Origin: an uncultured Candidatus Peribacteria bacterium
GTDB taxonomy: Bacteria; Patescibacteriota; Gracilibacteria; Peribacterales; Peribacteraceae
Assembly: GCA_964554435.1 (NCBI GenBank)
Contig: CAZKOO010000004.1
Location: forward strand, 2,116-66,115
Length of the DNA: 64,000 nt
Direction of reading: 5' to 3'
Numbering within the stretch: the stretch's first letter is position 1; each line of letters begins with the position of its first letter. Below the pieces are notes generated by a model. The model searched no databases and had not been told where the DNA came from. It saw only the letters and a program-made list of their open reading frames with translations. This document shows positions 10,819-47,227 of this stretch, in pieces. The translations under genes were made by a program, and so were the position numbers.

Positions 10819-10859
10819 TGTGTCTATTATCTACTGTCTACTATCTATTTCTCTGCATA

Positions 10860-12956
10860 CTACTTTCCTCCCTGACGTGCTTCGATGATGCCATCGGCAA
10901 CGTTCTTTGGAACTTTTGCGTAGTGGCTTGGCTCCATGGAGTAGCTCGCACGACCTTGTGTCATGGAACGAAGCTCTGTTGCGTATCCGAACATGGATGA
11001 GAGTGGGACTTCTGCGAGGATTGTCTTCGCCATACCACGGTTTCCTGTGTCTTTGATGAGGCCACGACGAGCGCTTAAGTCACCCATCACATCTCCGAAG
11101 TACTCTTCTGGGCTTACTACTTCTACCTTCATCACAGGCTCAAGGATGACAGGGTCTGCCTTGCGTGCTGCTTCCTGTGCACCAATAGATGCACAGATTT
11201 TGTACGCCATTTCAGAGGAGTCTACATCGTGGTAGCTACCATCAGTCAGTTCAACACGAACGTCAACAATCTGGAAGCCTGCAAGTGCACCACGAGAAAG
11301 ACCTTCTTGGAAACCCTTGTTACATGGTTCAATGAATTCACGAGGAATGCGTCCTCCAACCACTTGGTTATCGAACTCATAACCCTTTCCTGGCTCTTGA
11401 GGAATGAGGCGGAACAAACAGTGACCGTACTGACCACGTCCACCTGTCTGCTTGATGTACTTCGACTCATGCTCTACCGCTTTTTGAATGGTCTCACGGT
11501 ACGCTACCTGTGGCTTTCCTGAGTTGCTCTCTACTTTAAATTCACGCTTCATACGATCCATGATGATATCGAGGTGCAATTCACCCATTCCAGAAAGAAT
11601 GGTTTGACCTGTTTCTTCATCGGTACGAACACGAAGTGTTGGATCTTCTTCTGAAAGTTTCTGCAGTGCAAGGCCCATCTTTTCCTGATCTGCCTTTGTC
11701 TTTGGCTCAACAGCAAGACTGATCACTGGCTCTGCAAAGGTAATGCTTTCAAGAAGAACAACGCTATTTTCTGCGCAGAGTGTGTCTCCTGTGCGTGTTT
11801 CCTTAAGTCCAATGACAGCACCGATGTCTCCTGCTTCAATTTGATCAATTTCTGTACGCTGGTTTGCGTGCAAGCGAACGAGACGACCAATGCGCTCCTT
11901 GTTTCCTGTGCGTGCATTAACAACGTACGAACCAGACTTGAGAACGCCAGAATACACGCGAACGAAACAGAGCTTACCCACGAATGGATCTGTTGCAATT
12001 TTGAATGCAAGTGCAGAGAGTGGCTCAGTATTTTCTGGCTTGCGTGTAATAGACTCTCCAGATGTTTGATCTACGCCCTTCACTGGGGGTGTGTCGAGTG
12101 GAGTTGGCAAGAAATTGACAACTGCATCGAGAACAAGCTGCACACCCATGTTCTTGAGAGATGAACCACACAGAACAAGGAACACCTTACCTGACACAAC
12201 GCCTGCGCGAAGAGCCTCTTTGATCTCTTCTTTTGTAAGCATTTCTCCACCAAGGTACTTCTCCATGAGCGCATCGCCACCAAACTCCGCTGCCTTTTCA
12301 ACTAAGATCGTGCGATACTTTGCAACTTGATCTTTCATATCCTCTGGCACAGGGTGATGAACGTGATTTTCACCATGTGCTCCTTCAAAAGTGATCATCT
12401 CCTCTTCAATAAGATCGATGATTCCACTGAAATCGCTTTCTGCGCCTACTGGGAGCTGAATAGCAACAGCGTCTTTACTTAAGCGATCGTGAATGCTTTG
12501 CAGTGACATGTAGAAATCGCCACCAATCTTGTCCATCTTATTGACGAATGCAAGACGTGGAACGCCGTACTTATCTGCCTGACGCCACACTGTTTCAGAC
12601 TGTGGCTCTACACCCTGTGAACCATCGAACACTGCAACACCACCGTCGAGAACACGAAGAGAACGCTCTACTTCTGCAGTAAAGTCCACGTGTCCTGGAG
12701 TGTCGATCAAGTTGATAGTTGTTGTTGTGTCTACGCCACGGAACTTTGACTTCCATGTACACTGTGTTGCTGCAGATGTGATGGTAATACCACGCTCACG
12801 CTCTTGTTCCATCCAGTCCATTGTTGCCTCTCCTTCGTGTACTTCACCAATTTTGTAGTTCTTTCCTGTGTAGAAAAGAATGCGCTCTGATGTGGTTGTC
12901 TTTCCAGCATCAATATGCGCGATAATTCCGATATTACGAACATTTTTTAAATCCAT
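10860..12956 (-). CDS. fusA: Elongation factor G
   Basis: 698 aa starting [21 protein letters not shown], with the full EF-G domain set through to the C-terminus. Confidence 0.95.
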
Positions 12957-13412
12957 ACAAAGAGAGAAAAAGAGATAAGAAACGAAAAAAGTGCACATAG
13001 TGTAGGGAATATGCACGTGAAAAGAAAGAGATTTTATAGATGTTTTTGAGGGAAATATTGACTTATAAAAATATTTTTGTATGATATATTTATGGAATTT
13101 CGTGATACTACAGATGACTGGACAGGCTATCGCGCATTATTATCGCCAGAACAAATAAAAGAAGAAAGATCTCATTGTTTCCCTAGTTCTACAGCATTGC
13201 TTCATTGTGAAAGGATACTTACTGAATCTCAAATTGCTATTCAAGAGTATCAAAGAGCTCTTGGTCTCGTGATTTTTCAAAATACTGCACGCACAAACCC
13301 TCGCTCTCCTCGTTTTGAAAGAACCGCTAGATCTAGGGTTGTGGAAAGTTGTCAAGACGCTACTGGTAGCGTGTCATCATTTTCAAGAACAACACCAACC
13401 TATGCGTAACAC

Positions 13413-13679
13413 TCATCTTCGTTCGTAGATGGCGTGTGTGCCAATGGATATCAACAGATAGGTATTGTCCTCTAATGGCTGTAGAATAATCCGATTTTTT
13501 CGATCAAGCGATATGCTCCAATACCCTGATAATTCTCCTGATAATTTATGAAGACGAAGAGATGGATGCAGTGGATTTTGTAAAAATAATTCGATTGATC
13601 GTGCTGCTTTCTTTTTCATGTCATATGCAATGTTTTTGTGCTGTTTTTTAAATCGCTCTGAATAGACTAATGTCATCAT
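13413..13679 (-). CDS. Type II toxin, RelE/YafQ-like mRNA interferase family
   Basis: 88 aa with HPSLRLHKLSGELSGYWSISLDRKNRIIL, typical of RelE/ParE-superfamily toxins. Lies 10 nt downstream of the antitoxin ORF. Confidence 0.7.
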   Translation of the reverse strand: MMTLVYSERFKKQHKNIAYDMKKKAARSIELFLQNPLHPSLRLHKLSGELSGYWSISLDRKNRIILQPLEDNTYLLISIGTHAIYERR

Positions 13680-13689
13680 ATACTATCAA

Positions 13690-13929
13690 TTACGGCAACT
13701 CAGGCAATAAAAGATCTTGAGGATTCAATAATTTTTTTGTTTTTCCTGAAAGAAAATCTTTCCTTGCTTCTTTCGCATAGAACAACAATTCATCTTCATT
13801 AATAAGATGCTCCTCCTCATCCACTCTTTGTAGAATATAGGCACTAATGGTCATATTTGCTAACTGCGCCTTCTTTTTCAGAGCAGCAAGTTTTTCTGGA
13901 GGAATAGAGATACTAAGGACTGCACGCAT
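13690..13929 (-). CDS. Putative antitoxin (ribbon-helix-helix-like)
   Basis: 79 aa. The N-terminal SISIPPEKLAALKKKAQLANMTISAYIL resembles an RHH DNA-binding fold. Positioned upstream of the toxin. Confidence 0.6.
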   Translation of the reverse strand: MRAVLSISIPPEKLAALKKKAQLANMTISAYILQRVDEEEHLINEDELLFYAKEARKDFLSGKTKKLLNPQDLLLPELP

Positions 13930-13943
13930 AGAAGAAAAAGAAG

Positions 13944-13963
13944 TGTATTACAATTGTAATACA
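13944..13963. promoter_or_regulatory. 20-nt perfect palindrome, candidate TA operator
   Basis: TGTATTACAATTGTAATACA lies 15-34 nt upstream of the antitoxin ATG. Confidence 0.55.
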
Positions 13964-13981
13964 GATTTCTCATAAAATCAA

Positions 13982-14004
13982 GAAAAATCCTTCTTGGAAG
14001 GATC
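13982..14004 (-). terminator. Rho-independent terminator after rpsG
   Basis: ATCCTT-cttgg-AAGGAT stem followed by TTTTT on the minus strand. Confidence 0.6.
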
Positions 14005-14036
14005 TTTCAAGTATTGTTGATAGAATAAGATGAATA

Positions 14037-14495
14037 CTACGCCATCTTTGCAAAGTGGGCGTACGCCTTGTTTGCTTGAGCCATCTTGTACACATCTTCC
14101 TTCTTCTTCACTGCAGCACCTTGTTCTGCAGACGCATCGAGGAGTTCAAGAGCGAGTTTCTCTGCCATGCGAACACCTTTGCGAGCGCGAGCTGCAATGA
14201 GAATCCAGCGAATAGAAAGAGATTGTTGACGCTTTGGGTTGACTTCTGTTGGCACTTGGTACACCGCTCCAGCAACACGCTTTGGACGCACTTCGATGAG
14301 TGGCGTTGTGTTGATGAGAGCTTTGCTAAAGACTTCCATTGGCTCGTCTTTTGTGCGAGTTTTGATGACCGCAAGAGTATCTGCAAAGATCTGACGAGCA
14401 ATAGACTTCTTTCCCTGCTTCATGAGACAGTTAATGAACTTCTCAATGAGAGTGTCGGAACCTTTTGGAATATATGCTTTAGGGAGTGTAGCCAT
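14037..14495 (-). CDS. rpsG: 30S ribosomal protein S7
   Basis: 152 aa, S7 signature throughout (KFINCLMKQGKKSIARQIF...EVRPKRVAGAVYQVP). Confidence 0.95.
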   Translation of the reverse strand: MATLPKAYIPKGSDTLIEKFINCLMKQGKKSIARQIFADTLAVIKTRTKDEPMEVFSKALINTTPLIEVRPKRVAGAVYQVPTEVNPKRQQSLSIRWILIAARARKGVRMAEKLALELLDASAEQGAAVKKKEDVYKMAQANKAYAHFAKMA

Positions 14496-14498
14496 AGG

Positions 14499-14556
14499 GA
14501 GATAGTAGATTGTAGACGGTTAGTTAGTGAGTAGTAGTTAGTGGGTAGTAGATAGC
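14499..14556. repeat. 7-nt-period TAG-word array
   Basis: GATAGTAGATTGTAGACGGTTAGTTAGTGAGTAGTAGTTAGTGGGTAGTAGATAGC. Shares the 14-mer AGTAGATTGTAGAC with 2435-2448. Confidence 0.75.
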
Positions 14557-14569
14557 TTTCTTCATTTTT

Positions 14570-15004
14570 CTATTTCTTCGCAGCGCCTGCTTTTGGTCGC
14601 TTTGCTCCATAGAGAGAGCGTCCTTGCTTACGATCGCGGACACCTTCACAGTCGAGAACACCACGAATGATGTGGTAACGCACACCTGGCAAGTCTTTCA
14701 CACGACCTCCACGCACGAGAACAACGGAGTGCTCTTGAAGATTGTGGCCCTCTCCTCCAATGTATGCTGTTACTTCTTCTCCATTGGTAAGACGCACACG
14801 AGCAATTTTACGAAGAGCGGAGTTTGGCTTCTTTGGAGTCATGGTTGTTACCTTGAGACATACACCACGTTTCTGAGGAGCTCCCTTTGGAAGAGGGATA
14901 GAAGAAAGCTTGAGAGCATTCCAGGTTGCTTGCAAGTTTGGAGCTTTTGTACGGCTCTTTTGAACCTTACGTGGATGACGGATGAGTTGATTAATAGTTG
15001 GCAT
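14570..15004 (-). CDS. rpsL: 30S ribosomal protein S12
   Basis: 144 aa starting [13 protein letters not shown], with ...[19 protein letters not shown]. Confidence 0.95.
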
Positions 15005-15066
15005 GGGCTGATGGATTCTACTGAATCAGAAGGAAAGAGTAAAGAGAAAATGAAGAGTTTATGAGC

Positions 15067-18000
15067 CTAGGCATCTTCATCGGAAGATGTCTCTGCTTGT
15101 TTATCGGCTTTTGCGCCTTCAAGACGGCTGCGGAAGATTTCACCGGCAGGAATAAGGCGACCAATAATCACGTTTTCCTTGAGACCCTTCAAGTAATCGA
15201 TGTTACCTGTTGTTGCAGCTTCGACAAGAACACGAATTGTTTCTTGGAAAGACGCACCAGCAAGCCAAGAGTCGGTAGCAAGAGAAACACGAGTAAGACC
15301 CAAGAGCATTTGTTCGTATGTTGCTTGCTTTGCATTCTTGTTTGTCTTTTTTGCAACTGCATCTGCACGGCGTACGTCGGAAATGTCGACAACTTCTCCA
15401 GCAAGGAGCATGGTGTCTCCACCATCGACAATACGCACTTTGCTAAACATCTTGCGTGCAATGATTTCCAAGTGTTTGTCGTTAATCGTTTGCCCTTGAG
15501 ATGCATAGATGTGTTGTACTTCTTGAATGATGTAGCTCTGCACTGCGTGCGGACCTTGCTTCTCGAGTAATTCTTGCAAGTTATAGTGACCTGCATTGAT
15601 GGCCTGTCCTGCCTTGATCATGTCACCATTCTTCACAATGAGCTGTTCACGAGCATGGAATTCGTAGGTACGATCTTGCATTTCGCTATGCTTCACGACA
15701 ATTTTTCCACCTTCGATGCTGTCTACTGTTCCTCCAATCATGGTCTTAAGAGCAGACTTATCGGTCAGAGAGCGTGCAAGTACAGACTTCTCTTTCACTT
15801 GATCACCTTTTTTCACGATGACTTCGTATCCTGCAGGAATGAAGTAATGATCGAAATCGAGCTCTTCGCCTGAAATTTGCACAGTTGTTTGACCTCCTTT
15901 GTGTACAATTTTCACGCGACCTGAAATATCGGAAAGAGTTGCTGGCGTGCGTGGGGAACGTGCTTCAAAAATTTCTTCTACACGAGTCAAACCTTGTGTA
16001 ATATCTGAGCCTTCTGCGACTCCTCCCATGTGGAAAGTACGCATTGTAAGCTGTGTACCCGGCTCACCAATGGACTGTGCGGCCATGATACCAACTGGAG
16101 TACCCAGTTTAACTGTCTTATTATCGGCAAGATCGCGTCCATAACACTTCTGACAAATACCTCCATCTGTTTGACAAGTAATGACTGCGCGTACATTGAC
16201 ACCATCGATCTTATTTTCGGTGAAGAGATCAATCATTGCTGCATCAATTTCATCGTTGCGCTTTGCAATGACTTTTTTACCAGAAACAACATCGGTATTG
16301 AGCACGCGTCCAAAAATGCGATGCTCAAACTTTTCTCCAATGCGCTCTGAGTCTTCACGAGTAATGTCATATCCAATATCGGTACCACAATCTTCTTCAA
16401 TGATCACGATGTCTTGTACTGCATCGACCAAACGACGAGTGAGGTATCCGGCTTCTGCTGTTTTGAGAGCGGTGTCGGACTTACCCTTGCGTCCTCCGTG
16501 TGTCGCAATGAAGTACTCAAGAATGGTGAAACCTTCCTTCAGGTTACTCTGAATTGGAAGTTCAATGGTGCGACCAGATGGGTTGGCAACAAGTCCCTTC
16601 ATACCAGCGAGCTGTGTAATTTGACCCCAGTTACCACGAGCGCCAGAGTCGATCATGTAGGTAATGCTATTACGATCGTGTGATGTAAATTGCTTAATCA
16701 TCACTGCTGCAACCTCGTTCTTTGTTTTGCTCCAAATGCGAATTGCATGCTGATAGCGTTCATCTGCAGTAATCCATCCTTTCATGAAGAGTGTGTTGAT
16801 GTCTTGAATTTTCTTGTTTGCCTCTGCAAGAATCTCCTTCTTCTCTGAAGGAATGAGCATATCGCTCATAGAAATGGAAAGACCAGACTTTGTTGCGTAC
16901 TTGAAGCCAACGTTTTTAATGTCATCCGCAAGACGTGCTGTTCGCTCTGGTCCAATGAGATCAAGCGCACGAGCAATAATCTTACTGAGAACGCCTTTCT
17001 TGAGGGTCTCATTGATGATGCCAAGTTCTGGTGGAACAATCTGTTGGAAAATGAGCCTTCCTGCTGATGTTTCCATATATTCATACTCCCCTTCTTCGCC
17101 TCCTTGCTTTGGAAAGCGTACTTTAATTTTTGCTTTGAGATCGATGGCACCATGTTCATACGCCATCATTGCCTCATGTGCAGAGCCATAGACGCTACCA
17201 TGTCCCTTGTATCCATCGTGTACTGCAGTGAGGAAGTAGCAACCAAGCACCATGTCTTGCACTGGAGTGATGATTGGCTCACCTGCAGATGGCTTCAAAA
17301 CGCTTCGTGCTGCGCTCATGAGTTCACGAGCTTCTTTTTGTGCCTGATCGGAGAGTGGTACGTGAACGGCCATTTGGTCTCCATCGAAGTCGGCATTGAA
17401 CGCTGTACAAACGAGTGGATGCAATTGAATAGCAAGACCTTCAACAAGACGTGGTCGGAATGCCTGAATACCAAGACGGTGAAGTGTTGGAGCACGGTTT
17501 AAGAGAACGTACTTTCCTTGAATAACTTCTTCAAGGATGTCCCACACACGCTTGCCTCCATCGAACACCATGCGCTCTGCTGTTTTCACGTTGTGTGCCA
17601 ATTCTTCACGAATGAGTTGACCGATGACAAATGGCTTGAAGAGTTTCATTGCCATATCTTTTGGCAAGCCACATTCATCAATTTTGAGTGTTGGACCGAC
17701 AACGATGACGGAGCGACCAGAGTAGTCCACGCGCTTACCAAGCAAGTTCTGACGGAAGCGACCTTGCTTTCCTTTTAACATATCGGAGAGAGATCGAAGT
17801 TTGCGGCGATCTCCTGCGGTAAAGAGTGCCTTTCCTGCACGAGCGGAGTTGTTGAGGAGTGTATCAACCGCTTCCTGCAACATGCGCTTTTCATTGCGGC
17901 AGATCACTTCAGGAGCACCGATGCTCATGAGTTTGCGAAGACGATTGTTACGGTTGATGACGCGACGGTAGAGATCGTTCAAATCGGATGCAGCAAAACG

Positions 18001-18954
18001 CCCACCATCGAGCTGCACCATTGGGCGAAGATCAGGTGGAAGAATAGGCAAACGAGTGAGAATCATCCATTCTGGCTGAATGTTTGCTTGCTTGAGTGAC
18101 TGGATGAGCTTGAGACGTTTCATGATTTTCTTGAGCTTCTGTCCACTACTCTGCTGACGCTCGACCATGAGTGCTTCTACGAGTGTATCGTAGTCCATGC
18201 TTGCGATGATCTCACGGAGAGATTCTGCACCTGTTCCTGCACGGAAGAGATGCCCGAATTTCATGTTCATTTCGCGGAATTTCAGCTCAGATAGAACGGA
18301 GCCAATGTGCAAATTTTCAAGATCTTCAAGAGCATCTTTGTGGTTCACTTTGAGTTGATCGAGACGCTCTGCTGTGGATGCCTCAAGTGCATCGAGCTGA
18401 TCGCGACTTGGGTTACCAGACTTGAGCGTTTTCATGGCATCATCATGCTCACGCTTAATTTGATTGCGGTGTGCATCGTACTCTTTGCTTAGCTCTTTCT
18501 TCACTTCTTCCTTGCCTTCCTCATCGACCGTCACAACGACGTATGCTGAGAAATAGACGATTTGTTCGAGTGTTTTGATGGAGAGATCGAGAAGGAGCCC
18601 AAGACGAGATGGTGAACTACGAAGGAACCAAATGTGCGTCACAGGTACTGCAAGGTTGATGTGACCCATGCGCTCACGACGAACGATGGAACGTGTGACT
18701 TCTACGCCACATTTCTCACATACAACGTTGTTGTAGCGAATGCCTTTGTACTTTCCACAGAAACACTGAAAGTTCTTTGTAGGACCGAAGATGCGCTCAC
18801 AGAAGAGCCCATCTGGTTCTGCACGCTGGGTGCGGTAGTTTACTGTTTCTGGCTTCGTGACTTCACCACGAGACCAACCAAGAACATCTTCAGGACTTGC
18901 GACGCTGAGAGCAACAGCATCGAATGAATCGGACGTGCGAGGAACGTAGGACAT
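15067..18954 (-). CDS. rpoC: DNA-directed RNA polymerase subunit beta-prime
   Basis: 1295 aa with the Zn-finger CFCGKYKG...CEKCGVEV, catalytic NADFDGDQM, and the bridge-helix and trigger-loop blocks. Confidence 0.97.
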   Translation of the reverse strand: MSYVPRTSDSFDAVALSVASPEDVLGWSRGEVTKPETVNYRTQRAEPDGLFCERIFGPTKNFQCFCGKYKGIRYNNVVCEKCGVEVTRSIVRRERMGHINLAVPVTHIWFLRSSPSRLGLLLDLSIKTLEQIVYFSAYVVVTVDEEGKEEVKKELSKEYDAHRNQIKREHDDAMKTLKSGNPSRDQLDALEASTAERLDQLKVNHKDALEDLENLHIGSVLSELKFREMNMKFGHLFRAGTGAESLREIIASMDYDTLVEALMVERQQSSGQKLKKIMKRLKLIQSLKQANIQPEWMILTRLPILPPDLRPMVQLDGGRFAASDLNDLYRRVINRNNRLRKLMSIGAPEVICRNEKRMLQEAVDTLLNNSARAGKALFTAGDRRKLRSLSDMLKGKQGRFRQNLLGKRVDYSGRSVIVVGPTLKIDECGLPKDMAMKLFKPFVIGQLIREELAHNVKTAERMVFDGGKRVWDILEEVIQGKYVLLNRAPTLHRLGIQAFRPRLVEGLAIQLHPLVCTAFNADFDGDQMAVHVPLSDQAQKEARELMSAARSVLKPSAGEPIITPVQDMVLGCYFLTAVHDGYKGHGSVYGSAHEAMMAYEHGAIDLKAKIKVRFPKQGGEEGEYEYMETSAGRLIFQQIVPPELGIINETLKKGVLSKIIARALDLIGPERTARLADDIKNVGFKYATKSGLSISMSDMLIPSEKKEILAEANKKIQDINTLFMKGWITADERYQHAIRIWSKTKNEVAAVMIKQFTSHDRNSITYMIDSGARGNWGQITQLAGMKGLVANPSGRTIELPIQSNLKEGFTILEYFIATHGGRKGKSDTALKTAEAGYLTRRLVDAVQDIVIIEEDCGTDIGYDITREDSERIGEKFEHRIFGRVLNTDVVSGKKVIAKRNDEIDAAMIDLFTENKIDGVNVRAVITCQTDGGICQKCYGRDLADNKTVKLGTPVGIMAAQSIGEPGTQLTMRTFHMGGVAEGSDITQGLTRVEEIFEARSPRTPATLSDISGRVKIVHKGGQTTVQISGEELDFDHYFIPAGYEVIVKKGDQVKEKSVLARSLTDKSALKTMIGGTVDSIEGGKIVVKHSEMQDRTYEFHAREQLIVKNGDMIKAGQAINAGHYNLQELLEKQGPHAVQSYIIQEVQHIYASQGQTINDKHLEIIARKMFSKVRIVDGGDTMLLAGEVVDISDVRRADAVAKKTNKNAKQATYEQMLLGLTRVSLATDSWLAGASFQETIRVLVEAATTGNIDYLKGLKENVIIGRLIPAGEIFRSRLEGAKADKQAETSSDEDA

Positions 18955-19015
18955 AGGGTAGGGGGAGTGAATAGAGGATAGGTGTTAGGTGATAGGTGTT
19001 AGGTGATAGGTTATT
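18955..19015. repeat. 7-nt-period word array (GGTGTTA/GGTGATA)
   Basis: AGGGTAGGGGGAGTGAATAGAGGATAGGTGTTAGGTGATAGGTGTTAGGTGATAGGTTATT lies directly upstream of the rpoC ATG. Confidence 0.75.
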
Positions 19016-21424: not shown

Positions 21425-22207
21425 TTGAGTACGATAACGACCATGTCTCCTCGCGCATCATCCACTCGCACTCCAACACGTCGTAGTGCGCCAAAAAGTC
21501 CATCTGTACAGAAAAAAAATGTGAAATCTCCTGAGAAGAAGATCTCGGTACAACGTCGCGCGAAGGCAAAGACATCAACAAAAAAGCTTTCTACGATCTT
21601 TGAAAAGAAAGCATCTCCATCAAAAAAAATGACACCAGTGAAGCATGTGACACCTACTACTCATGCACGACCATCTCGCATGAGTTCCATCCTCAAAACA
21701 ATTGGCTTGCAATGCATTATTGCAGGGTCTGCAGCAGTCATTTTAATTATGATGGGGATGATTGAGCGTGATGTGTTTACCACTGGTTCTGGTCGAGCGA
21801 TGAATGTTGTGAGTCCTGCAACCATTGGACTGGAATTTGAGGGACGCCTTGCGCTTTCTTGCGTCGTTGCAGAGAAAGATGAGAATGGATATATCAGCAT
21901 CACCAATACATCGGCAAAGGACATTCATATTTCTCTTCCTTCCTCTTGGTCTCGACTGGAAGTGATGAATGCTTCACTCGAAGAAACAAAAGGCGAACTT
22001 CCTGTATTTGGCTTTACGCGCTATAAATTGCCAAAATTTGCATCCCTCCGATTTGCTGTTCCAGAACTTCCATCAGATTTCTTATTTGACGCTCGTGGCA
22101 CAGGCGTTGCTGCTGTGACAGTAAAGACTGTTCATCTGGATGATTTGAAAACCACCTCTCAGACGGTTCTTGTTCAGAAGCAGACCTTGGTGAGGATTGG
22201 GGAATAG
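21425..22207 (+). CDS. Hypothetical membrane-anchored protein with basic N-tail
   Basis: 260 aa with a Lys/Ser/Pro-rich N-terminus, one TM (LQCIIAGSAAVILIMMGMI), then a globular part. A TTG start follows AAGGAAGGAG; an alternative ATG is at 21443. Confidence 0.55.
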   Translation: MSTITTMSPRASSTRTPTRRSAPKSPSVQKKNVKSPEKKISVQRRAKAKTSTKKLSTIFEKKASPSKKMTPVKHVTPTTHARPSRMSSILKTIGLQCIIAGSAAVILIMMGMIERDVFTTGSGRAMNVVSPATIGLEFEGRLALSCVVAEKDENGYISITNTSAKDIHISLPSSWSRLEVMNASLEETKGELPVFGFTRYKLPKFASLRFAVPELPSDFLFDARGTGVAAVTVKTVHLDDLKTTSQTVLVQKQTLVRIGE

Positions 22208-22247
22208 GTATGACCAAGGTGATAGGTTTTAGGTTCTAGGTTTTAGG
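22204..22247. repeat. Word array (GGTGATA/GGTTTTA/GGTTCTA)
   Basis: Includes the TAG stop of the upstream gene. An opposed partner lies at 22401-22432. Confidence 0.7.
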
Positions 22248-22400
22248 AAACAAAACTCATGTCAAGTTCGTTTAGCGATTCTATACGGCTTTGCCTCAAT
22301 AATTTTGATTCTTCTCTCATAGAGCATTCGTATGAGAAGCCATTATGATGTTTCGGCTACGCCGATATATTCGAAATTATTAAAGCAAATTAGTATAATA

Positions 22401-22432
22401 CCTATGACCTATCACCTAAAACCTAAAACCTG
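22401..22432. repeat. Word array, opposite orientation (TATCACC/TAAAACC)
   Basis: CCTATGACCTATCACCTAAAACCTAAAACCTG. Its units are reverse complements of those at 22204-22247. Confidence 0.7.
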
Positions 22433-22445
22433 ATATTCTGACCTT

Positions 22446-23300
22446 ATGCTTCTTCTTCCCCTCACCACTCCCCTTCTCCGTACTGGTGATGATCTCGCAA
22501 GCATCCTCTTTCAATGCGGATCTCTCCAAGATGGTGATATTCTCGTGCTTTCCTCAAAAGCGCTTGCAGCAGTTGAAGGAGCGCAGATTGATCTGTCTAC
22601 AATGACTGTGACAGATGAAGCGAAGGAATATGCAAAAAAATGCAATCAGGACCCTCGTTTTACGCAGGCGATTCTTGAGGAAACAAAGCGCATGAATGGA
22701 CGAGTGGTTGGCACATGCCCGTACGCACTATTTACCGCACTGAAGCCAAGCGGAATGCAGACTGGAACAATTCTGTGTCCGAATGCTGGACTTGATCAAT
22801 CGAATATCGAGAGTGGTTTTGCCATTGGTTGGCCGAGGGATAGCGTAGGATCGGTAAAACGACTACGAGAGAAAATTATTGGAGCACTGGAAAAGGAAAT
22901 CAATCCGTCTTCGCTCCTGAAGAGCTACGCCGAGATGAATGGAAAAGATACTCTCAACTCTCAACTATCAACTACCAACTTCGCACTCATTCTCTCCGAC
23001 TCGTGTTGCAAGCCTGCGCGTCTTGGAGTGACTGCGTTTGCTCTTGCGTGCTGTGGAATTGACCCTCTCAAGAGTGAAGTGGGCTCGAAAGACATTTTTG
23101 GAAAGCCACTGCGCATGACGCACGAAGCCCTTGCCGATCAACTCGCGACTGCTGGAAACATGCTCATGGGCAACGCAGGGCAATGCACGCCTGCAGCGAT
23201 TATCCGAGATCATGGCATTCCTTTTACGGAGTACAGCGGATGGGTGAATGGCATGGACCCACAGGATGATCTCTTTGCAGATATTCTTCGCTTCGAGTAA
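22446..23300 (+). CDS. CofE/FbiB-like gamma-glutamyl ligase family protein
   Basis: 284 aa. LLRTGDDLASIL...DGDILVLSSKALAAVEG is typical of the F420-0:gamma-glutamyl ligase fold. Contains a translated heptamer tract at 22950-22980. Confidence 0.7.
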   Translation: MLLLPLTTPLLRTGDDLASILFQCGSLQDGDILVLSSKALAAVEGAQIDLSTMTVTDEAKEYAKKCNQDPRFTQAILEETKRMNGRVVGTCPYALFTALKPSGMQTGTILCPNAGLDQSNIESGFAIGWPRDSVGSVKRLREKIIGALEKEINPSSLLKSYAEMNGKDTLNSQLSTTNFALILSDSCCKPARLGVTAFALACCGIDPLKSEVGSKDIFGKPLRMTHEALADQLATAGNMLMGNAGQCTPAAIIRDHGIPFTEYSGWVNGMDPQDDLFADILRFE

Positions 23301-23310
23301 GCTAGCAAGG

Positions 23311-24024
23311 ATGGCAACTCCTCGCTACGAAACAACGTGCATAGAGAAGAAACTTATTGCAACGGACGTGTATCAACTCCGCTTCATAAAGCCTGAAGGT
23401 TTTGCATACAGCGCTGGACAATTTGTGCTGTTCGACACTCCACACGTTGACGATCTGAGCACAACAGAACCACGCGCATACTCCATTGCATCAATGCAAG
23501 ATGAAGAAGATCTTCTCTTTGTCATTAAACTCAAAGATGGTGGTCGGTTTAGTGAATTTCTGCGTCAAAAACTTGATGTTGGTACAGAGATGACATTTGT
23601 CGGTCCACTGGGGTTTTTTACTCCCACGCTCAACGATCACGCGAAAATGCTCATTGGCACTGGAACAGGTATTGCGCCACTCCGAGCTCACCTTCGCTTT
23701 TTTGCACAACATGAGTATTCTCACGTTGTTCACGTGCTCTTTGGCGTACGAGAAAGCACTGACCTCTTTTGGGTTGATGAACTGAAAGCTCTTGGAAGCA
23801 CGCTCCCTTCTTTCTCTTTGCATCTCTGCTTGAGTGCAAAACACATCAATAATGATCATTATCACGGACGCGTGAGCGCACTCCTTCCTTCGCTGATAAC
23901 CGATGCTCTGACGACTGATGTATCCCTCTGTGGAAACCCTGCCATGGTGAAAGAACTGAAAACTCAGTGTATTGATGCGTTGCAGATTCCAAAGAAGCAG
24001 GTACACGGGGAAGGGTATGTGTAG
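23311..24024 (+). CDS. Ferredoxin-NADP reductase-like FAD/NAD(P)-binding oxidoreductase
   Basis: RAYSIAS (FAD RxYS motif) and GTGIAPL (NAD(P) motif). The ATG lies 10 nt after the upstream stop. Confidence 0.75.
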   Translation: MATPRYETTCIEKKLIATDVYQLRFIKPEGFAYSAGQFVLFDTPHVDDLSTTEPRAYSIASMQDEEDLLFVIKLKDGGRFSEFLRQKLDVGTEMTFVGPLGFFTPTLNDHAKMLIGTGTGIAPLRAHLRFFAQHEYSHVVHVLFGVRESTDLFWVDELKALGSTLPSFSLHLCLSAKHINNDHYHGRVSALLPSLITDALTTDVSLCGNPAMVKELKTQCIDALQIPKKQVHGEGYV

Positions 24025-24130
24025 GGAGTGGCTTGTAGCTATTAGCAGTTAGCAATTGGCTTGGCTGGTAGCTTGTAGCTATTGGCAATGAAAGTAGTAG
24101 ATAGTAATTAGTTAGTAGTTGATAGTGGTA
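24022..24130. repeat. Long 7-nt-period word array (two dialects)
   Basis: TAGGGAGTGGCTTGTAGCTATTAGCAGTTAGCAATTGGCTTGGCTGGTAGCTTGTAGCTATTGGCAATG, then AGTAGTAGATAGTAATTAGTTAGTAGTTGATAGTGGTA. It starts with the TAG stop of the upstream gene. Confidence 0.75.
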
Positions 24131-24177: not shown

Positions 24178-24199
24178 TTAGCGTATTAATACGCTGTCA
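24178..24199 (-). promoter_or_regulatory. Second copy of the yerC-promoter core
   Basis: TTAGCGTATTAATACGCTGTCA is identical to 10751-10772. Here it sits in a convergent intergenic region. Confidence 0.4.
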
Positions 24200-27029: not shown

Positions 27030-27662
27030 TTAACCTGCTATCATCGCAAGAACCTTCGGGTACCACTCTTTTTCGAGTTCTTGCACCTTTTTCTGTAGTG
27101 TTTCCACTGTCTCATCTTCATCAATTGAACACTTTTTTTGTACAATAATTTCCCCTGTATCCACTCCTTCATCCATAAAATGGATGGTAACTCCAGATTC
27201 TTTTTCACCTGTCGCAAGCACTGCCTCATGCACATGGTGACCATACATCCCCTTTCCGCCAAATTTTGGAAGAAGTGCAGGGTGCACATTGATGATCTGT
27301 TTTGCCCATTTTTTGGTAAACCATGGAGAGAAGATCCACATCCAACCCATGCACGCGATAGAAAAGTTGATAGTTGATAGTTGATAGTTGATAGTTCCCC
27401 TCTCCTCGCGGGGAGAGGGGTTAGGGGTGAGGGCATGAATGGCACTATCAATTCTATGATCGTAGCTTTCACGATCTTCATCCTTCTGTTTTTCTACCAC
27501 GATGTAGGGCACATTGTGTGCTTTTGCTTTTTCAATACATCCACGATCGGCGCGATCGGTCACGAGACCAAGGCATGGATTGTTGAGTGTGCCGTTTTGA
27601 ATAGCATGTAGCGTTGCTTCGAATGTTGTACCGCGGGAAGAAGAGAGGACGATGAAGGACAT
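27030..27662 (-). CDS. purN: Phosphoribosylglycinamide formyltransferase
   Basis: 210 aa from MSFIVLSSSRGTTFEA, with INVHPALLPKFGG and GVTIHFMDEGVDTGEII motifs. Carries a repeat insertion. Confidence 0.85.
   Translation of the reverse strand: MSFIVLSSSRGTTFEATLHAIQNGTLNNPCLGLVTDRADRGCIEKAKAHNVPYIVVEKQKDEDRESYDHRIDSAIHALTPNPSPREERGTINYQLSTINFSIACMGWMWIFSPWFTKKWAKQIINVHPALLPKFGGKGMYGHHVHEAVLATGEKESGVTIHFMDEGVDTGEIIVQKKCSIDEDETVETLQKKVQELEKEWYPKVLAMIAG
27366..27434 (-). repeat. Composite element: 4x GTTGATA + GC hairpin + GGTTAGGGGTGAGGGC, inside purN
   Basis: Read in-frame as ALTPNPSPREERGTINYQLSTINFS. A sister copy lies at 28793-28858. Confidence 0.85.
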
Positions 27663-27682
27663 TGTAAGAGGATTCAGAGGAA

Positions 27683-27711
27683 GCAGAAGAGTCAAAGGAA
27701 TCAGAGGAAAC
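27683..27711. repeat. Left inverted repeat of the four-helix-bundle cassette
   Basis: GCAGAAGAGTCAAAGGAATCAGAGGAAAC matches the reverse complement of 28100-28128 at 27 of 29 positions. Confidence 0.75.
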
Positions 27712-28067
27712 TATGATAATGCAGCGCTTAATCGTGTCAAAAGAAAACTGATACGCTTGATTGCGTCATCATAATGCTCAAAATCAGAAATTTTTATATA
27801 GTCTAAATCGGTTGATAGTCGCAATTCACAATGTAATTCTTCAAGTGATGCATGCGCAATTTCTATAAACCGCATCTTTTCTTTTGCAGATTTTTTCGTA
27901 TTTCCTTCTGCGATATTAATGGGGGCACTATATGCCGATCTGCGCATTTGACTTACTAATCCAAACTTTTCTTCAGATGGAAAAGTACATGTTAATTTAT
28001 AAATACTTACACATAATTTGTATGCTTCCTGCCACACTATTAGTTTCTCATATGGTCGTTCATGCAT
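27711..28067 (-). CDS. Four-helix-bundle protein (23S rRNA IVS protein / Avd-like family)
   Basis: 118 aa with FPSEEKFGLVSQMRRSAYSAPINIAEG. Paralog of 1725-2084. Confidence 0.85.
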   Translation of the reverse strand: MHERPYEKLIVWQEAYKLCVSIYKLTCTFPSEEKFGLVSQMRRSAYSAPINIAEGNTKKSAKEKMRFIEIAHASLEELHCELRLSTDLDYIKISDFEHYDDAIKRISFLLTRLSAALS

Positions 28068-28132: not shown

Positions 28133-29278
28133 TTATAATTGCATCAAGAATTCATCAAACAAATATGCTGCATCTTCTGGCCCTGGTGTTGCTTCGGGGT
28201 GAAATTGAACCGAGAAAAATTTACCAGATTCGTGACGAATGCCTTCCACTGTTCCATCGTTCGCGTTTGTAAACCACACACTCCAACCCTGAGGTAATGT
28301 GGATGCATCCACAGCAAAGCCATGATTTTGCGATGTAATGATGCAACGATCGGTTGCCTTTCCATCTTTCCATTCAATGCATGGCTGATTCAATCCACGA
28401 TGACCATATTTGAGCTTGTACGTATCTCCACCAATCGCAAGCGAGAGAAGCTGATTGCCAAGACAGATGCCGAAGGTTGGAATGTTCTGTTCAATTGCCC
28501 ATTTAATCTGAGTAATTGTTTCGGTGCACTTTTTTGGATCTCCTGGCCCATTGCTGATGAAGAGACCATCGTACTGTAATGATGAATTCTTGAGATCATA
28601 GTTCCATGGAACACGATGCACACGAACGCCTCGAGAAAGCCACGAACGAAGAATGCCACGCTTAATACCACAGTCGTAGACAACCAGTGTTTTTGGCTCG
28701 AGTCCTTCTTCCTTCTTCTCTGGCTCGTAGGTCACAACATCGGTACATGACACCTCCGCAACGAGATTGAGATTGTTCGGATCTAGAAAAGAGTTGGTAG
28801 TTGGTAGTTGGTAGTTGGTAGTTCCCTCTTCCTCTGGGGAGAGGGTCGGGGTGAGGGCACACATTCTCCCCAGCATCACTCCATGTTCACGGAGTTTTTG
28901 CGTGAGAGCTCGAGTGTCGATGCCGGAAATGCCTGGAATGTTGTGATGAACCATCCACTCATGTAGAGAGCTGACGGCCTTATGATGACTAAACTCACGC
29001 ACTTCTGAACTCACGATAATACCACGGACTTGAACAGCCTCACTCTCAAAATTTTTACTAAACCCATACTCATTCTTCTCTTCGCTAGGAACGCCATAGT
29101 TCCCAACAAGAGGATAGGTAAACACGAGTATCTGTCCACGAAAACTTGGATCGGTCATGGAGTCGGGGTACCCAACCATGCCCGTTGAAAACACTACTTC
29201 GCCATCTGTATCAATAGGCGCACCAAAAGACTCACCTTCGAATACTGTTCCGTCGGAAAGAAGAAGAGAAGCTGACAT
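28133..29278 (-). CDS. carA: Carbamoyl-phosphate synthase small (glutaminase) subunit
   Basis: 381 aa with a CPSase small N-domain and a GATase triad context (ICLGNQLL, HGFAV, FSVQFHPEA). Carries a repeat insertion in the interdomain linker. Confidence 0.9.
   Translation of the reverse strand: MSASLLLSDGTVFEGESFGAPIDTDGEVVFSTGMVGYPDSMTDPSFRGQILVFTYPLVGNYGVPSEEKNEYGFSKNFESEAVQVRGIIVSSEVREFSHHKAVSSLHEWMVHHNIPGISGIDTRALTQKLREHGVMLGRMCALTPTLSPEEEGTTNYQLPTTNSFLDPNNLNLVAEVSCTDVVTYEPEKKEEGLEPKTLVVYDCGIKRGILRSWLSRGVRVHRVPWNYDLKNSSLQYDGLFISNGPGDPKKCTETITQIKWAIEQNIPTFGICLGNQLLSLAIGGDTYKLKYGHRGLNQPCIEWKDGKATDRCIITSQNHGFAVDASTLPQGWSVWFTNANDGTVEGIRHESGKFFSVQFHPEATPGPEDAAYLFDEFLMQL
28793..28858 (-). repeat. 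Composite element: 4x GTTGGTA + GC hairpin + GGTCGGGGTGAGGGC, inside carA
   Basis: Read in-frame as ALTPTLSPEEEGTTNYQLPTTNS. Same architecture, orientation and frame as the purN copy. Confidence 0.85.
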
Positions 29279-29326: not shown

Positions 29327-30069
29327 GAAGCAGGATTCTTTCCTGCGGTCCTTTTTATAAAAAAGATACTTCATATCTTCATTTCTAATGGAGTCACATC
29401 CCATTTTCATGATGCAGAAGACCAAGGATAATCAGATTGACAAAAAGCAATGCCAGCTTTCACAGGATTGGCATGAATGTATGAAAGCACATTGTGTGCA
29501 TCATCTGGAAAAAGAAGGTGAAATCGTGATTGCCAAATTGGTCCTCGATCGATTGCAAATGCAGTTCCCCTTTTGAAGGTATACAATATTTTTGAGATTG
29601 ATCCATTGTCTGGAACACTAACTAAAAGATGTACATGATCTGGCATTATTGCAAATCCATAGAGAAAAAATGGAAAAATTTGCTGAGTACGATAGAGTGC
29701 AAGGACTGCTTCATTTGCATAAGCTGGCACTGAAAAAATAGTCTCTCTGTTTTGGGTATTTGTTATAATAAACATGATGGCACTATGCTGGATAGGATGT
29801 CTTTGAAAAGCCATATGTGTCATTGTAGAACAACCGCGCGAAGGAATCGCGCTCCTGTTTGTGTAAAACTTTGATGATCTCTCAATTTTTTGCTATCTAT
29901 AATCATTTTTTTAGTTCTGTGATGAAAAAGAACAGCTTAAAAAGAAGAAATAGTGTATAAAAGAAGATGCAAGACCACGCGAAAGAATCGCGCTCCTATT
30001 GTAATAAATTGAGATAAACGGTGGCAGGCTTATCATAAAAAACGGGAGCAGGATTCTTTCCTGCGGTCC
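29327..30069 (-). mobile_element. REPtron: RAYT gene bracketed by REP hairpins
   Basis: REPs lie at 29327-29352 (+), 29833-29856 (rc), 29974-29997 (rc) and 30044-30069 (+). The consensus is GGAGC(AGG/GCG)-ATTCYTT-(CCT/CGC)GCGG. Confidence 0.75.
29407..29823 (-). CDS. REP-associated tyrosine transposase (IS200/Y1 HUH family)
   Basis: 138 aa with HUH motif MPDHVHLLV and a catalytic Tyr context SYIHANPVKAGI. Confidence 0.8.
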   Translation of the reverse strand: MTHMAFQRHPIQHSAIMFIITNTQNRETIFSVPAYANEAVLALYRTQQIFPFFLYGFAIMPDHVHLLVSVPDNGSISKILYTFKRGTAFAIDRGPIWQSRFHLLFPDDAHNVLSYIHANPVKAGIAFCQSDYPWSSAS

Positions 30070-33387: not shown

Positions 33388-33767
33388 TAGGAATTGGAAG
33401 ATTGAGTACTATGAAATGCAGTATACTCTTTTTCTGCAGATGCAAGAATTTCGTTTCGTGCGCTGGCGAGCGCACCTGCAACACACGTTGTAACCTCAGG
33501 GTTTTGAGTAGTATCCATGTACTTCTCGCACCAGAGAACAATCTGTTCGATGTCACTGCCGTACACTGCCTCGTGCCACTCGCTATAAGCACTGCCCCCT
33601 AGCCTCAGAGCAATTTCTTGACAACAAATCTGCATTGTCTTCGTTGCAAGATATTCCAAGAAATCCCCATCATTCTCGTGTGAAAAAATGGGAAGTTCAG
33701 CAGCTGCTTCACCAACAATTTTGCTGATTTCTGCAGTGAGCGCCTGTGGGGAGAAGAGAGAGTCCAT
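33387..33767 (-). CDS. Hypothetical protein (126 aa)
   Basis: ORF translationally coupled to the 818-aa gene. Confidence 0.5.
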   Translation of the reverse strand: MDSLFSPQALTAEISKIVGEAAAELPIFSHENDGDFLEYLATKTMQICCQEIALRLGGSAYSEWHEAVYGSDIEQIVLWCEKYMDTTQNPEVTTCVAGALASARNEILASAEKEYTAFHSTQSSNS

Positions 33768-33873
33768 GTGTTAGGTATTAGGTGTTAGGTATTAGGGGTT
33801 AGGTATTAGGGGTTAGGGGAGAGGGGTTAGGCCTGCCCGCCGAAGTCCGAAGGACGTAGGAGGGGGTGAGGGC
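33768..33873. repeat. Intergenic composite element (heptamer array + GC element)
   Basis: GTGTTAGGTATTAGGTGTTAGGTATTAGGGGTTAGGTATTAGGGGTTAGGGGAGAGGGGTTAGGCCTGCCCGCCGAAG...GGGGGTGAGGGC. Confidence 0.8.
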
Positions 33874-33883
33874 GGAGGAAGAA

Positions 33884-42476: not shown

Positions 42477-42556
42477 TTGATAGTGGGTAGTAAAGAGTGG
42501 GTAGTAAAGAGCGCTGAAAAAGTCTACTAACTACTACCAACTAACTACTACCAACT
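42474..42556. repeat. Opposed word arrays after rny
   Basis: TAGTTGATAGTGGGTAGTAAAGAGTGGGTAGTAAAGAG, then CTACTAACTACTACCAACTAACTACTACCAAC. The first unit is the rny TAG stop. Confidence 0.75.
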
Positions 42557-42681
42557 TTTCACTCAGCTCCCCTTGACTCCCCCTCTACTCTTCTCTAGAA
42601 TCTCTTCATCTTTTTAAGACTCGATTCCTCTCCTTGAGAGGGTCCGTCATTACTCTCTCATTTCTTTTTCCCATCTCTCTT

Positions 42682-43863: not shown

Positions 43864-43877
43864 ATGGACTAGATGGC

Positions 43878-43900
43878 GGAGGGAGGCTTGTCCTCCCTCC
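43878..43900 (+). other. Intercistronic GC hairpin between tuf and rpsJ
   Basis: GGAGGGAGG-cttgt-CCTCCCTCC, a 9-bp perfect stem with no T-run. Confidence 0.5.
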
Positions 43901-43950
43901 CCTTCTCTCCTTTTCCTCTCTTATTCGCTCTTTTTTTTACCGCATCTTGT

Positions 43951-44406
43951 ATGTCTCCTACTAAAAAAACTTCTGCAGATGAAGCAACTCCAAAGAAAGC
44001 TCCTGCTAAAAAAACTACTCCTTCAAAGAAGGTCACTTCTGAGAAGAAAGATGCGGCTCCAAAAACAAAATCTGCTGCAAGTTCTACTGAAACAGCAAAG
44101 ATTGCAGGCATTCGCATCCGTCTTTCTGCTTTTGATCATAGTGTGTTAGATGAAGCAGCGATGAAGATTATCGATACTGCTATGCGTTCTGGTGCAGTTG
44201 TACATGGCCCAACTCCCCTTCCAACAAAGATTCGTAAGTTTACAGTCAACCGCTCCACCTTCGTCCACAAGGACGCTCGTGATCAGTTTGAAATGCGCAC
44301 ACACCGTCGTTTGATTGACCTCAGTGAAACAACTTTCAAGACTGTTGACTCTCTTCAGAACCTCAGCCTTCCAAGCGGAGTAGAGATCGAAATTCGCATG
44401 AAGTAA
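43951..44406 (+). CDS. rpsJ: 30S ribosomal protein S10 with Lys/Ala/Pro-rich N-terminal extension
   Basis: The S10 core is [24 protein letters not shown]...GVEIEIRMK. The only in-frame ATG upstream of the core gives a ~53-aa basic extension. Confidence 0.85.
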
Positions 44407-47166: not shown

Positions 47167-47227
47167 AACTAGCGACGAGCGAGTAGCGTTTCGTTGGTAG
47201 TTGATAGTGGGTAGTTGTTCGTTATTA
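47167..47227. repeat. Word array
   Basis: CAACTAGCGACGAGCGAGTAGCGTTTCGTTGGTAGTTGATAGTGGGTAGTTGTTCGTTATT. Confidence 0.65.

Follow-up and report, generated by a model that had tools for sequence, protein, structure and literature searches.

Heptameric tandem repeats have been known since 1990 and are described under names such as STRR (short tandemly repeated repetitive sequences) and LSSR. Here we analysed arrays of the same period in a 64-kb stretch of contig CAZKOO010000004.1 from an uncultured Candidatus Peribacteria bacterium (the whole stretch is called the window below), among them the tract at 24022-24130, which the original prediction had placed in a family of at least 15 tracts. With some reserve, we consider it probable that these tracts are STRR-like simple repeats, which would be made and resized locally and filtered by the tolerance of leaders, stop regions and protein loops. 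They would thus represent the Peribacteria counterpart of the cyanobacterial STRR and of the heptanucleotide LSSRs, typically with 3-9 units.

The cyanobacterial STRR were reportedly described by Mazel et al. in 1990, and their units STRR1-3 are CCCCAGT, TTGGTCA and CAACAGT. They are also a subject of Vioque 1997, as cited in PMC2858038, and STRR form hairpins between cyanobacterial genes (PMC2670836). The arrays described here resemble them in the 7-bp tandem unit, in being short, dispersed and mostly intergenic, in their strain- or species-specific sequences and in the inverted arrays forming hairpins between genes (45 pairs in the Peribacteria loci compared below; z = -2.3 to -5.5 for the folding of those in the window). 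They differ in their host, which is a bacterium of the candidate phyla radiation (CPR) and not a heterocyst-forming cyanobacterium, and in the coexistence of several heptamer dialects and a period-9 family in one genome. Tandem copies of the STRR1-3 units were not found in the window, and in the strict sense of the definition the arrays are not STRR. The heptanucleotide LSSRs were found by Mrazek et al. 2007 to be overrepresented in phylogenetically scattered prokaryotes and were ascribed to polymerase slippage, as cited in PMC4679880. Over-represented period-7 tandem repeats are also what is seen here, since the 7-nt units stand head to tail in at least three copies and exceed the expectation from composition, as in the heptanucleotide LSSR/STRR-type class.

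Rehm et al. 2015 described the quadruplex-forming heptamers GGGNATC and GGGGA(C/T)T of Xanthomonas and Nostoc, whose G-rich strand is antisense up to about 50 bp upstream of open reading frames (ORFs) and sense up to about 50 bp after the stop codon or overlapping it; inverted copies can form stem-loops, and close relatives differ in length and sequence at orthologous spacers (PMC4692102). The Peribacteria arrays show the same polarity (G-rich to C-rich sense 26:9 at stops and 4:20 at starts, p = 1.6e-5), the same inverted copies and the same variation between relatives, and one Peribacteria genome (L006) uses GGGATCA. Unlike those heptamers, the main dialects here (GTTGATA, AGGTGAT, TAGCAAT) lack G-tracts, whereas a quadruplex would require a tract of three to four G in each of about four units, and many arrays lie inside housekeeping genes. 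Blocks with a quadruplex pattern are found in the window only at 27410-27433, 28836-28857 and 50902-50932, and with just three G-tract blocks in 64 kb an explanation by quadruplexes was rejected.

A second related case are the TAACTGA direct repeats in marine Beggiatoaceae, cyanobacteria and Bacteroidetes (MacGregor 2015, PMC4679880). They comprise stops in all frames in forward direction and are translatable in reverse (LSVISYQ), from which the tolerated positions were derived; they overlap the stop codons of upstream genes, abut starts without a Shine-Dalgarno site, and their copies within ORFs are tolerated at protein peripheries (PMC4679880). The logic of one strand with stops and one open strand, the overlap with stops, the adjacency to starts lacking Shine-Dalgarno sites and the copies within ORFs recur here. 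In contrast, the stop-rich strand of TAACTGA is the sense strand upstream of starts, whereas the leaders described here have a C-rich sense strand, and one unit there faces many dialects here. TAACTGA itself is present in the window as one single copy and never in tandem.

The original prediction knew of no described family of such design. This does not hold, since the same logic was described by MacGregor 2015 (PMC4679880) and the same polarity by Rehm 2015 (PMC4692102): the design is already described. No report of heptamer repeats in Peribacteria or other CPR genomes was found in the literature searched, and the paper on Ca. Peribacter riflensis mentions no more than a single direct repeat and short ones at the origin of replication, together with indels of tens of bp in 12 proteins. 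With period 7, hairpin pairs and the gene-end polarity of Xanthomonas and Nostoc, the Peribacteria arrays make clear that the heptamer phenomenon is no cyanobacterial oddity, but recurs in very distant lineages with little use of Shine-Dalgarno sites.

Identity and catalogue of the arrays

The period-7 enrichment, which the original prediction had made dependent on a comparison with shuffled sequence, persisted: a strict self-match scan of the window at lag 7 yielded 8 segments and none in 30 dinucleotide-preserving shuffles. In the same scan period 14 gave 3 segments and period 9 gave 1, and no further period stood out. Tandem Repeats Finder (TRF) reported 26 period-7 rows. Lags of 7 or 14 gave the best self-similarity in 14 of the 15 tracts listed by the original prediction (z = 3.5-7.7, each tract being compared with its own shuffles), which confirms their tandem nature, while the tract at 63174-63277 has a period of 9 rather than 7 and is no heptamer tract. 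The flagged tract at 24022-24130 is degenerate (lag-7 identity 0.57, z = 6.6) and was missed by TRF.

Exact-protein look-ups led to Logan contigs from SRR7369911, SRR7369912 and SRR7369924 and to two ENA contigs (ERZ3430527) that were 100% identical to the window and span the arrays at 2429, 10821, 14499, 22401, 22950, 24022, 33768, 47167, 50000, 60124 and 63174, which sit well inside these contigs and away from their ends. An assembly artefact, for example at contig joins, is ruled out by these independent assemblies, which agree base for base. The k-mer assemblies break solely at two perfect arrays, those in carA and purN.

About 84.5% of the window is coding. According to Pfam annotation it contains an unsplit rpoC, RNase Y, T4SS-type pilins and LTD proteins, and the closest relatives by carA, in a scan of one genome per species, are Candidatus Peribacteria (Peregrinibacteria, CPR) with at most 76% identity. 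On these grounds, a cyanobacterial source of the DNA, as the STRR might suggest, was rejected. A metagenome scan for contigs of the same species, intended for the comparison of copy numbers, gave nothing closer than 74%, apart from one partial match of 81%.

The arrays of the window are found in four settings, namely with G-rich sense at or after a stop, with C-rich sense at a start, with both in one spacer, and in-frame inside genes. The individual tracts are as follows.

24022-24130, plus strand: flagged tract, (TAGCNNT)n at ~24033-24088 with ~8 units, then (GTNNNTA)n at 24089-24130 with ~6 units
2424-2455, plus strand: G-rich arm AGACAGT/AGATTGT, contains the TAG stop of RNHCP (2444-2446), pairs with 2493-2523, hairpin z = -3.8
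2493-2523, minus strand: C-rich arm TCTATAA, complementary to 2424-2455
10821-10855, minus strand: solo array with the G-rich strand on minus, 5 nt downstream of the stop of fusA (minus), G-sense at the 3' end
14499-14556, plus strand: array filling the rpsL-rpsG spacer, genes on minus, sense strand C-rich, ends 3 nt before the rpsG ATG
18955-19015, plus strand: AGGTGAT/AGGTGTT array abutting the start codon of rpoC (minus), C-sense leader, perfect 14-nt higher-order units
22204-22247, plus strand: G-rich arm AGGTTTT/AGGTGAT, contains the TAG stop of orf260 (22205-22207), long-range pairing with 22399-22435, z = -5.5
22399-22435, minus strand: C-rich arm in the leader of the CofE-like gene (ATG at 22446)
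22947-22983, minus strand: in-frame array of the CofE-like gene (gene on plus), sense ACTCTCA/ACTATCA, encodes ...LNSQLSTTNF...
27357-27437, plus strand: purN insert, 81 nt, in-frame, purN on minus
28788-28860, plus strand: carA insert, in-frame in the interdomain linker, carA on minus, homologous to the purN insert
33766-33831, plus strand: GTTAGGT/GTTAGGG array abutting the ATG of orf126 (minus), spacer co-directional, C-sense leader, higher-order units of 14 and 28 nt
39729-39758, plus strand: AGGTTAT array inside the LTD/PKD gene (minus), C-rich strand as sense, an addition to the tracts of the original prediction
42474-42511, plus strand: G-rich arm AGTGGGTAGTAAAG x2.1, starts at the TAG stop of rny, hairpin z = -2.3
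42524-42556, minus strand: C-rich arm ACTAACTACTACCA x2.2, upstream of tuf, complementary to 42474-42511
47167-47227, plus strand: solo array between the stop of Bax1-I (minus) and the start of nusB (minus)
50000-50053, no strand assigned: weak mixed tract of period 7, located at the 5' end of the folP ORF, before the Pfam domain, the least convincing member
60120-60157, plus strand: G-rich arm TTTGTAG/GGGTAGT, preceded by a 73-aa ORF rich in Lys and Ala and by seven consecutive T, z = -4.2
60186-60231, minus strand: C-rich arm TCTACTA, ends 5 nt before the msrA ATG
63174-63277, no strand assigned: period-9 inverted pair, GTAGGTAAA left and CCTTACCTA right, G-arm then C-arm, z = -3.1 on plus and -4.2 on minus

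The flagged tract has its G-rich strand on plus and begins with the TAG that ends the FNR-like gene (23311-24024, plus). It lies in a convergent spacer, upstream of a terminator-like hairpin (24179-24196). The tract has no complementary partner arm and is identical in three Logan assemblies; the same identity was found for the array at 14499-14556 in Logan contig L081 and for that at 33766-33831 in contig L167. In RNHCP, orf260, the FNR-like gene and rny the TAG stop is taken from the first unit of an array, i.e. in several genes the array simply supplies the stop codon. C-sense arrays abut the starts of rpoC, rpsG, orf126, msrA and the CofE-like gene, and pairs of G-arm, loop and C-arm are formed at 2424/2493, 22204/22399, 42474/42524, 60120/60186 and, with period 9, at 63174/63240. 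In-frame arrays are present in purN, carA, the CofE-like gene and the LTD/PKD gene. The array at 47167-47227 has C-rich sense though the stop is nearer, and is the exception of the window to the polarity described below.

Orientation around genes and stop codons

For a comparison beyond the window, 47 Peribacteria loci (770 kb) and 33 loci from other phyla (468 kb) were searched with one fixed detector. The Peribacteria loci comprised 117 period-7 arrays (15.2 per 100 kb) and the controls 9 (1.9 per 100 kb), an approximately 8-fold difference in density; the counts are somewhat inflated, as some loci are related to each other. Period-9 arrays amounted to 58 versus 0. Period-7 arrays are a trait of the class, beyond this contig. 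Using ORFs of at least 90 aa as the boundary between coding and non-coding, 75 of 122 arrays lie outside. The heptamers change from species to species (AATTGAA, GCGGGTA, GGGATCA, ATGGACA, CCCTAAT and others), so the TAG/GGT words, which the original prediction took as the mark of the family, describe this genome only.

Orientation was counted for arrays with a clear G/C skew at most 150 nt from a gene boundary. Arrays nearest a stop showed G-rich sense in 26 and C-rich sense in 9 cases, while those nearest a start showed C-rich sense in 20 and G-rich sense in 4 (Fisher p = 1.6e-5 for both sides together). Unpaired arrays alone gave G-rich to C-rich sense ratios of 19:5 at the stop side and 3:11 at the start side (p = 8e-4). 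Among the inverted pairs the G-arm came first in 41 and the C-arm in 1, a count that is independent of gene calls. The orientation of the arrays around genes is non-random. Fourteen of the 26 G-sense stop-proximal arrays overlap the stop codon itself, and the stop-side count may be inflated: where a G-sense array lands in the dispensable 3' tail of a coding sequence, the array is itself the source of the stop. No such effect can produce the start-side bias.

As the original prediction had stated, the G-rich strand comprises stops in all three frames in nearly every tract of the window. The second half of that statement, a complementary strand open in all frames, applies to only 4 of 16 tracts (10821, 22950, 27366, 28793), three of which lie inside genes, where openness is obligatory. 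The complement of the flagged tract shows stops in two frames, and since the tracts at 2429, 42474, 60124 and 63174 each consist of two inverted arms, they carry a stop-rich arm on both strands. From these stops, the tracts were proposed to be stop cassettes under selection whose effect depends on orientation: at gene ends they would terminate read-through or frameshifted translation in every frame, and owing to the open opposite strand they could be placed inside genes. The dominance of G-sense arrays beside stops, the 14 overlaps with the stop codon, the four genes ending at the first TAG of an array and the closure of three frames in the window are in line with it. However, all frames are closed in just 15 of the 35 stop-proximal arrays of the Peribacteria loci, and 4 stop-proximal arrays with more frames closed on the C-rich strand still have the G-rich strand as sense. 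Closure of all three frames on the sense strand also occurs in 8 of 24 start-proximal arrays, many Peribacteria dialects are stop-free on both strands, and G-rich arrays are read as sense in genes. Any A+T-rich spacer contains stops in all frames within a few dozen bases. Finally, the same polarity is found for G-quadruplex-type heptamers, in which stops are irrelevant (PMC4692102). A selected stop cassette is accordingly regarded as very unlikely, and of the original proposal the orientation-dependent relation to gene ends remains.

A strand of G, T and A combined with a period coprime to 3 leads to stops in all frames without setting the orientation. The orientation of the arrays tracks the G/C skew and not the stop content, and the all-frame stops are a by-product of base composition, for which no function is shown. 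Inside genes, the sole rule is the absence of in-frame stops: across Peribacteria 26 intragenic arrays have G-rich and 21 C-rich sense, and all are stop-free. The intragenic CTA sense strand noted in the original prediction is correct for the window, as purN, carA and the CofE-like gene all contain genuine in-frame array inserts whose sense strand is C-rich, and it results from the ban on in-frame stops; it is not universal.

A simple reason for the start-side rule could be found in the leaders. In the window, the positions -20 to -1 are pyrimidine-rich and comprise 12% G compared to 21% overall, only 5 of 53 genes show an SD-like motif (SD, Shine-Dalgarno), and in many genes a -10-like box (TATACT, TACACT, TATAAT) is located as close as 7-13 nt to the start codon. 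In many of 44 Peribacteria, a -10-like TACACT/TACCAT box precedes the ATG of carA by 7-12 nt. This suggests that leaderless or near-leaderless mRNAs are widespread. Since SD sites are almost lacking and leaders are G-poor, unstructured leaders probably matter, and the need for unstructured, G-poor leaders would be the simplest reason for the start-side rule.

The hairpins of the window fold better than shuffled sequences (z = -2.3 to -5.5), and C-arms and solo leaders are located 0-13 nt from start codons. Both could be expected of functional RNA elements, whose G-arm/C-arm hairpins would process or stabilise transcripts, perhaps as RNase III targets, while solo C-rich leaders would act as unstructured, SD-independent landing pads for ribosomes or as sites of a repeat-recognising protein. 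Such a role would also fit the hairpin that keeps its position with sequence and period replaced between the relatives L009 and L012, the two intervening-sequence protein genes bracketed by complementary repeat arms, the presence of rnc and rny in the window, and the proposal that STRR hairpins stabilise transcripts or couple translation (PMC2670836). Nonetheless, wobble-compatible mismatches in the stems, compared with A·C mismatches, were equally frequent in sense and antisense (30 versus 30), by which strand-specific RNA selection on the hairpins was dismissed, and neither Rfam at gathering thresholds nor ARAGORN gave a known RNA family or gene under the arrays. A promoter-like site (TCGAAA-17-TATAAT, 22371-22399) between the arms 22204-22247 and 22399-22435 would put these arms on different transcripts, and the heptamers are not conserved between species, contrary to what a conserved binding protein would imply. 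Functional RNA elements therefore appear unlikely.

Returning to locally made simple repeats, the following course can be proposed. Arrays would originate from tandem duplication by replication slippage, with some exchange between arrays, and would persist only where, and in which orientation, gene expression tolerates them. In 5' leaders the G-poor strand would have to be the sense strand, and G-rich sense would be tolerated solely past the stop codon. Given the common dialect of the arrays in a genome, complementarity follows by itself wherever a spacer contains both a G-sense array at the 3' end of a gene and a C-sense leader. Such arrays would form long imperfect hairpins, like the STRR between cyanobacterial genes, and the hairpins would arise from shared dialect and polarity rule together.

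Arrays inside genes and turnover between relatives

The arrays in purN, carA and the CofE-like gene encode similar peptides (...GTINYQLSTINF..., ...GTTNYQLPTTNSF... and ...LNSQLSTTNF..., respectively). The inserts of purN and carA are homologous over ~85 nt, extending beyond the array. On the sense strand, the purN insert comprises a (NNNCCCC)3 block, a short hairpin CCCTCTCC/GGAGAGGG and (ACTATCA)4.6, and the carA insert a CCCC-heptamer block, a hairpin and (ACTACCA)4.6, the common form of the array being ACTAYCA. For the CofE-like gene, the Pfam domain match is split into two stretches. The AlphaFold model of purN (mean pLDDT 91.5) has a single segment of low pLDDT, namely the insert, a surface loop that connects a helix and a strand (approximately residues 81-100). 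Among 44 aligned purN homologues, most of which carry an annotation as Peribacteria or Peregrinibacteria, the length of this loop ranges from ~4 to more than 30 residues. The carA linker has a median length of 19 aa in Peribacteria versus 11.5 aa in others, and lag 7 is the best self-similarity of the linker DNA in 28 of 47 Peribacteria compared to 1 of 26 controls. There, the heptamers of each species result in 7-aa periodic peptides, e.g. ELKIENGKLKID or NAKCKMQN. Altogether, only stop-free, in-frame versions are found within ORFs, in flexible loops.

Inside the 7-nt arrays of the window, perfect 14-nt higher-order units were observed, for example at 18977-19011, 33770-33817, 42482-42511 and 42526-42556. 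Between relatives with flank identities of 87-95% (such as L009/L012, L018/L085, L028/L029, L031/L034), one partner comprises an array and the other a single unit or none. These two observations demonstrate, as far as sequence comparison reaches, that arrays grow in place through tandem duplication, and the same pairs document an evidently fast turnover between relatives. Gain, loss and resizing between relatives agree with the lineage-specific behaviour of the LSSR/STRR class. The same sites, namely the carA linker, the purN loop and intergenic hairpins, bear different repeats in relatives, and at the hairpin sites of the 87%-identical relatives L009 and L012 both arms changed together. A break between L034 and L095 (99.6% identical) was also considered as an array event, and was traced to a variable surface-protein region unrelated to the arrays.

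The inverted pairs and the composite gene inserts, at least, could alternatively be non-autonomous mobile elements. REPINs and REP elements are said to be mobilised by RAYT Y1 transposases (Bertels and Rainey in 2011), and Rickettsia palindromic elements were reportedly described by Ogata et al. in 2000. Elements similar to these or to MITEs would have spread within a 1-Mb genome into few permissive sites, and the Y1 (IS200-like) transposase of the window could be the mobiliser. Shared features are inverted doublets of fixed polarity, as the 41:1 ratio would be expected of a hairpin element that looks alike on both strands, the genome-specific sequence of the dialects, the intergenic position near gene ends and the in-frame insertion into housekeeping proteins at permissive loops. 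Unrelated repeats at the same sites in relatives, the two purN alleles described below, the ~85 nt beyond the array common to the purN and carA inserts and the hairpins flanking the Y1_Tnp gene at 29407-29823 fit as well. In contrast to REPINs and Rickettsia palindromic elements, no conserved full-length element was found: loops are unrelated, and the tandem-heptamer arms are alike only word by word. Near-identical imperfect palindromes of 20-40 nt matching the flanks of the transposase gene, as known for RAYT genes, were not seen among arms and loops, and the flanking hairpins belong to a different repeat family. Furthermore, relatives show growth from single resident units instead of clean empty and filled sites, and the perfect higher-order units indicate local duplication. 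A mobile origin is considered unlikely.

Several findings weigh against locally made and tolerated simple repeats. The mean heptamer distance is 2.48 within genomes versus 2.96 between them (permutation p < 0.0005), and slippage alone leaves the genome-specific dialects unaccounted for. The 41:1 polarity of the arms exceeds the prediction from 26:9 and 20:4 if the arms were independent. Two orthologous intergenic hairpin sites comprise GCGGGTA 7-mers in L009 and TGCAAAGAA 9-mers in L012. In purN, the Logan contig L162 (SRR7369912) has an unrelated 54-nt in-frame heptamer insert of the AGCCAAT dialect (L162:1384-1437) in place of the 81-nt one, with flanks identical to the window in 1383/1383 and 1566/1567 nt and a single nucleotide polymorphism 11 nt from the insert. 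Judged by these flanks, two purN insert alleles are evidently present within one population, although further differences between strains can be masked in a consensus contig. At 11 arrays, the unit numbers are the same in the consensus of all three sequencing runs, which argues that slippage is not extremely fast. The proposed constraints on leaders and 3' ends are themselves steps that we infer, every locus of the comparison surrounds carA, and genes outside the window were taken as the longest ORFs.

These points lead to another possibility, in which the arrays are actively written or homogenised in a genome-specific manner, be it by an enzyme with sequence specificity, by a mechanism using a template or by hairpin mobile elements of a new class with arms of tandem heptamers or nonamers. 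Fixed sites (intergenic hairpins, the carA linker, the purN loop and loops of other essential enzymes) would be rewritten repeatedly in the current dialect. If true, this would explain the genome-specific units and the 41:1 arm polarity, the joint change of arms and period (7 versus 9) in 87%-identical relatives and the two unrelated purN alleles in one population. We consider active writing to be unlikely as well. The genome-wide turnover of dialects and the rewritten sites in essential genes are the most interesting part. As Peribacteria genomes are small (~1.2 Mb) and related metagenome-assembled genomes number in the hundreds, it is possible to track in detail how arrays are gained, lost and rewritten at orthologous sites such as the carA and purN loops. 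In practical terms, gene calling and clustering can be misled by such arrays, which interrupt k-mer assemblies and give rise to hypervariable segments in proteins.

Neighbouring repeats and gene layout

A G+C-rich repeat family, CCCTCACCCC ... CCCCTCTCCCC, partly with an internal hairpin, is found at 9030-9100, 27398-27437, 28830-28860, 33816-33880 and 50898-50932. It occurs in spacers and in-frame in ribD (...APAGRPNPLPRGEG...), purN and carA, and three copies fit the G-quadruplex pattern on the plus strand. Similar peptides were observed in the purN loop of the 77%-identical relative P0003 (...PTSAGRPTLSQKGEG...) and in the carA linker of L022.

The Y1 transposase gene (IS200-like; Pfam Y1_Tnp, E = 6e-9) at 29407-29823 on the minus strand has GCAGGAAAGAATCCTGC hairpins on either side and two CGCGATTCYTTCGCG hairpins ahead of it, which resembles a RAYT arrangement. 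The hairpins around it are located at ~29330-29346, 30048-30064, 29841-29860 and 29971-29995. A related hairpin family, CGCAGGTAGAWACCTGC, is present at 8844, 20929, 50937, 53674 and ~63304, often adjoining arrays.

Period-9 tandem repeats (AGAGGAAGC, CTTACCTTC and similar) were determined at 27667-27709, 39790-39858, 51013-51053, 53707-53759 and 63338-63360, partly in coding sequence, as for 39790-39858 in the LTD/PKD gene. Both genes for a 23S rRNA intervening-sequence protein (Avd-like), at 1725-2084 and 27711-28067, are bracketed by complementary period-9 arrays with the G-arm left and the C-arm right (1659-1692/2100-2132 and 27667-27711/28094-28136). For the gene at 27711-28067, the two arms show 91% complementarity across 32 nt. 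As with an rRNA intervening sequence, a long hairpin would consequently enclose each Avd-like gene in its loop.

The layout of the core genes at 10860-18954 (minus) comprises rpoC without rpoB upstream, and small ORFs between rpsG and fusA within rpsL-rpsG-fusA, one of them with a weak match to the YafQ toxin. The genes tuf-rpsJ (42634-44406, plus) are located ~25 kb away on the other strand, directly after rny. The 73-aa Lys/Ala-rich ORF at 59851-60072 (plus) contains repeated ...KKAAPKAAKKVATT... in 42- and 36-nt tandem repeats and is followed by the run of seven T; it resembles histone H1-like or nucleoid proteins and is a gene call in the ENA contig L164. In addition, a 182-nt direct repeat (37538-37719/37844-38025, 82% identical) is found in the spacer beyond orf1160, and a 70-nt promoter-like duplication with two TTGACA boxes (2669-2738/3148-3217, 91% identical) lies upstream of two small unannotated ORFs.

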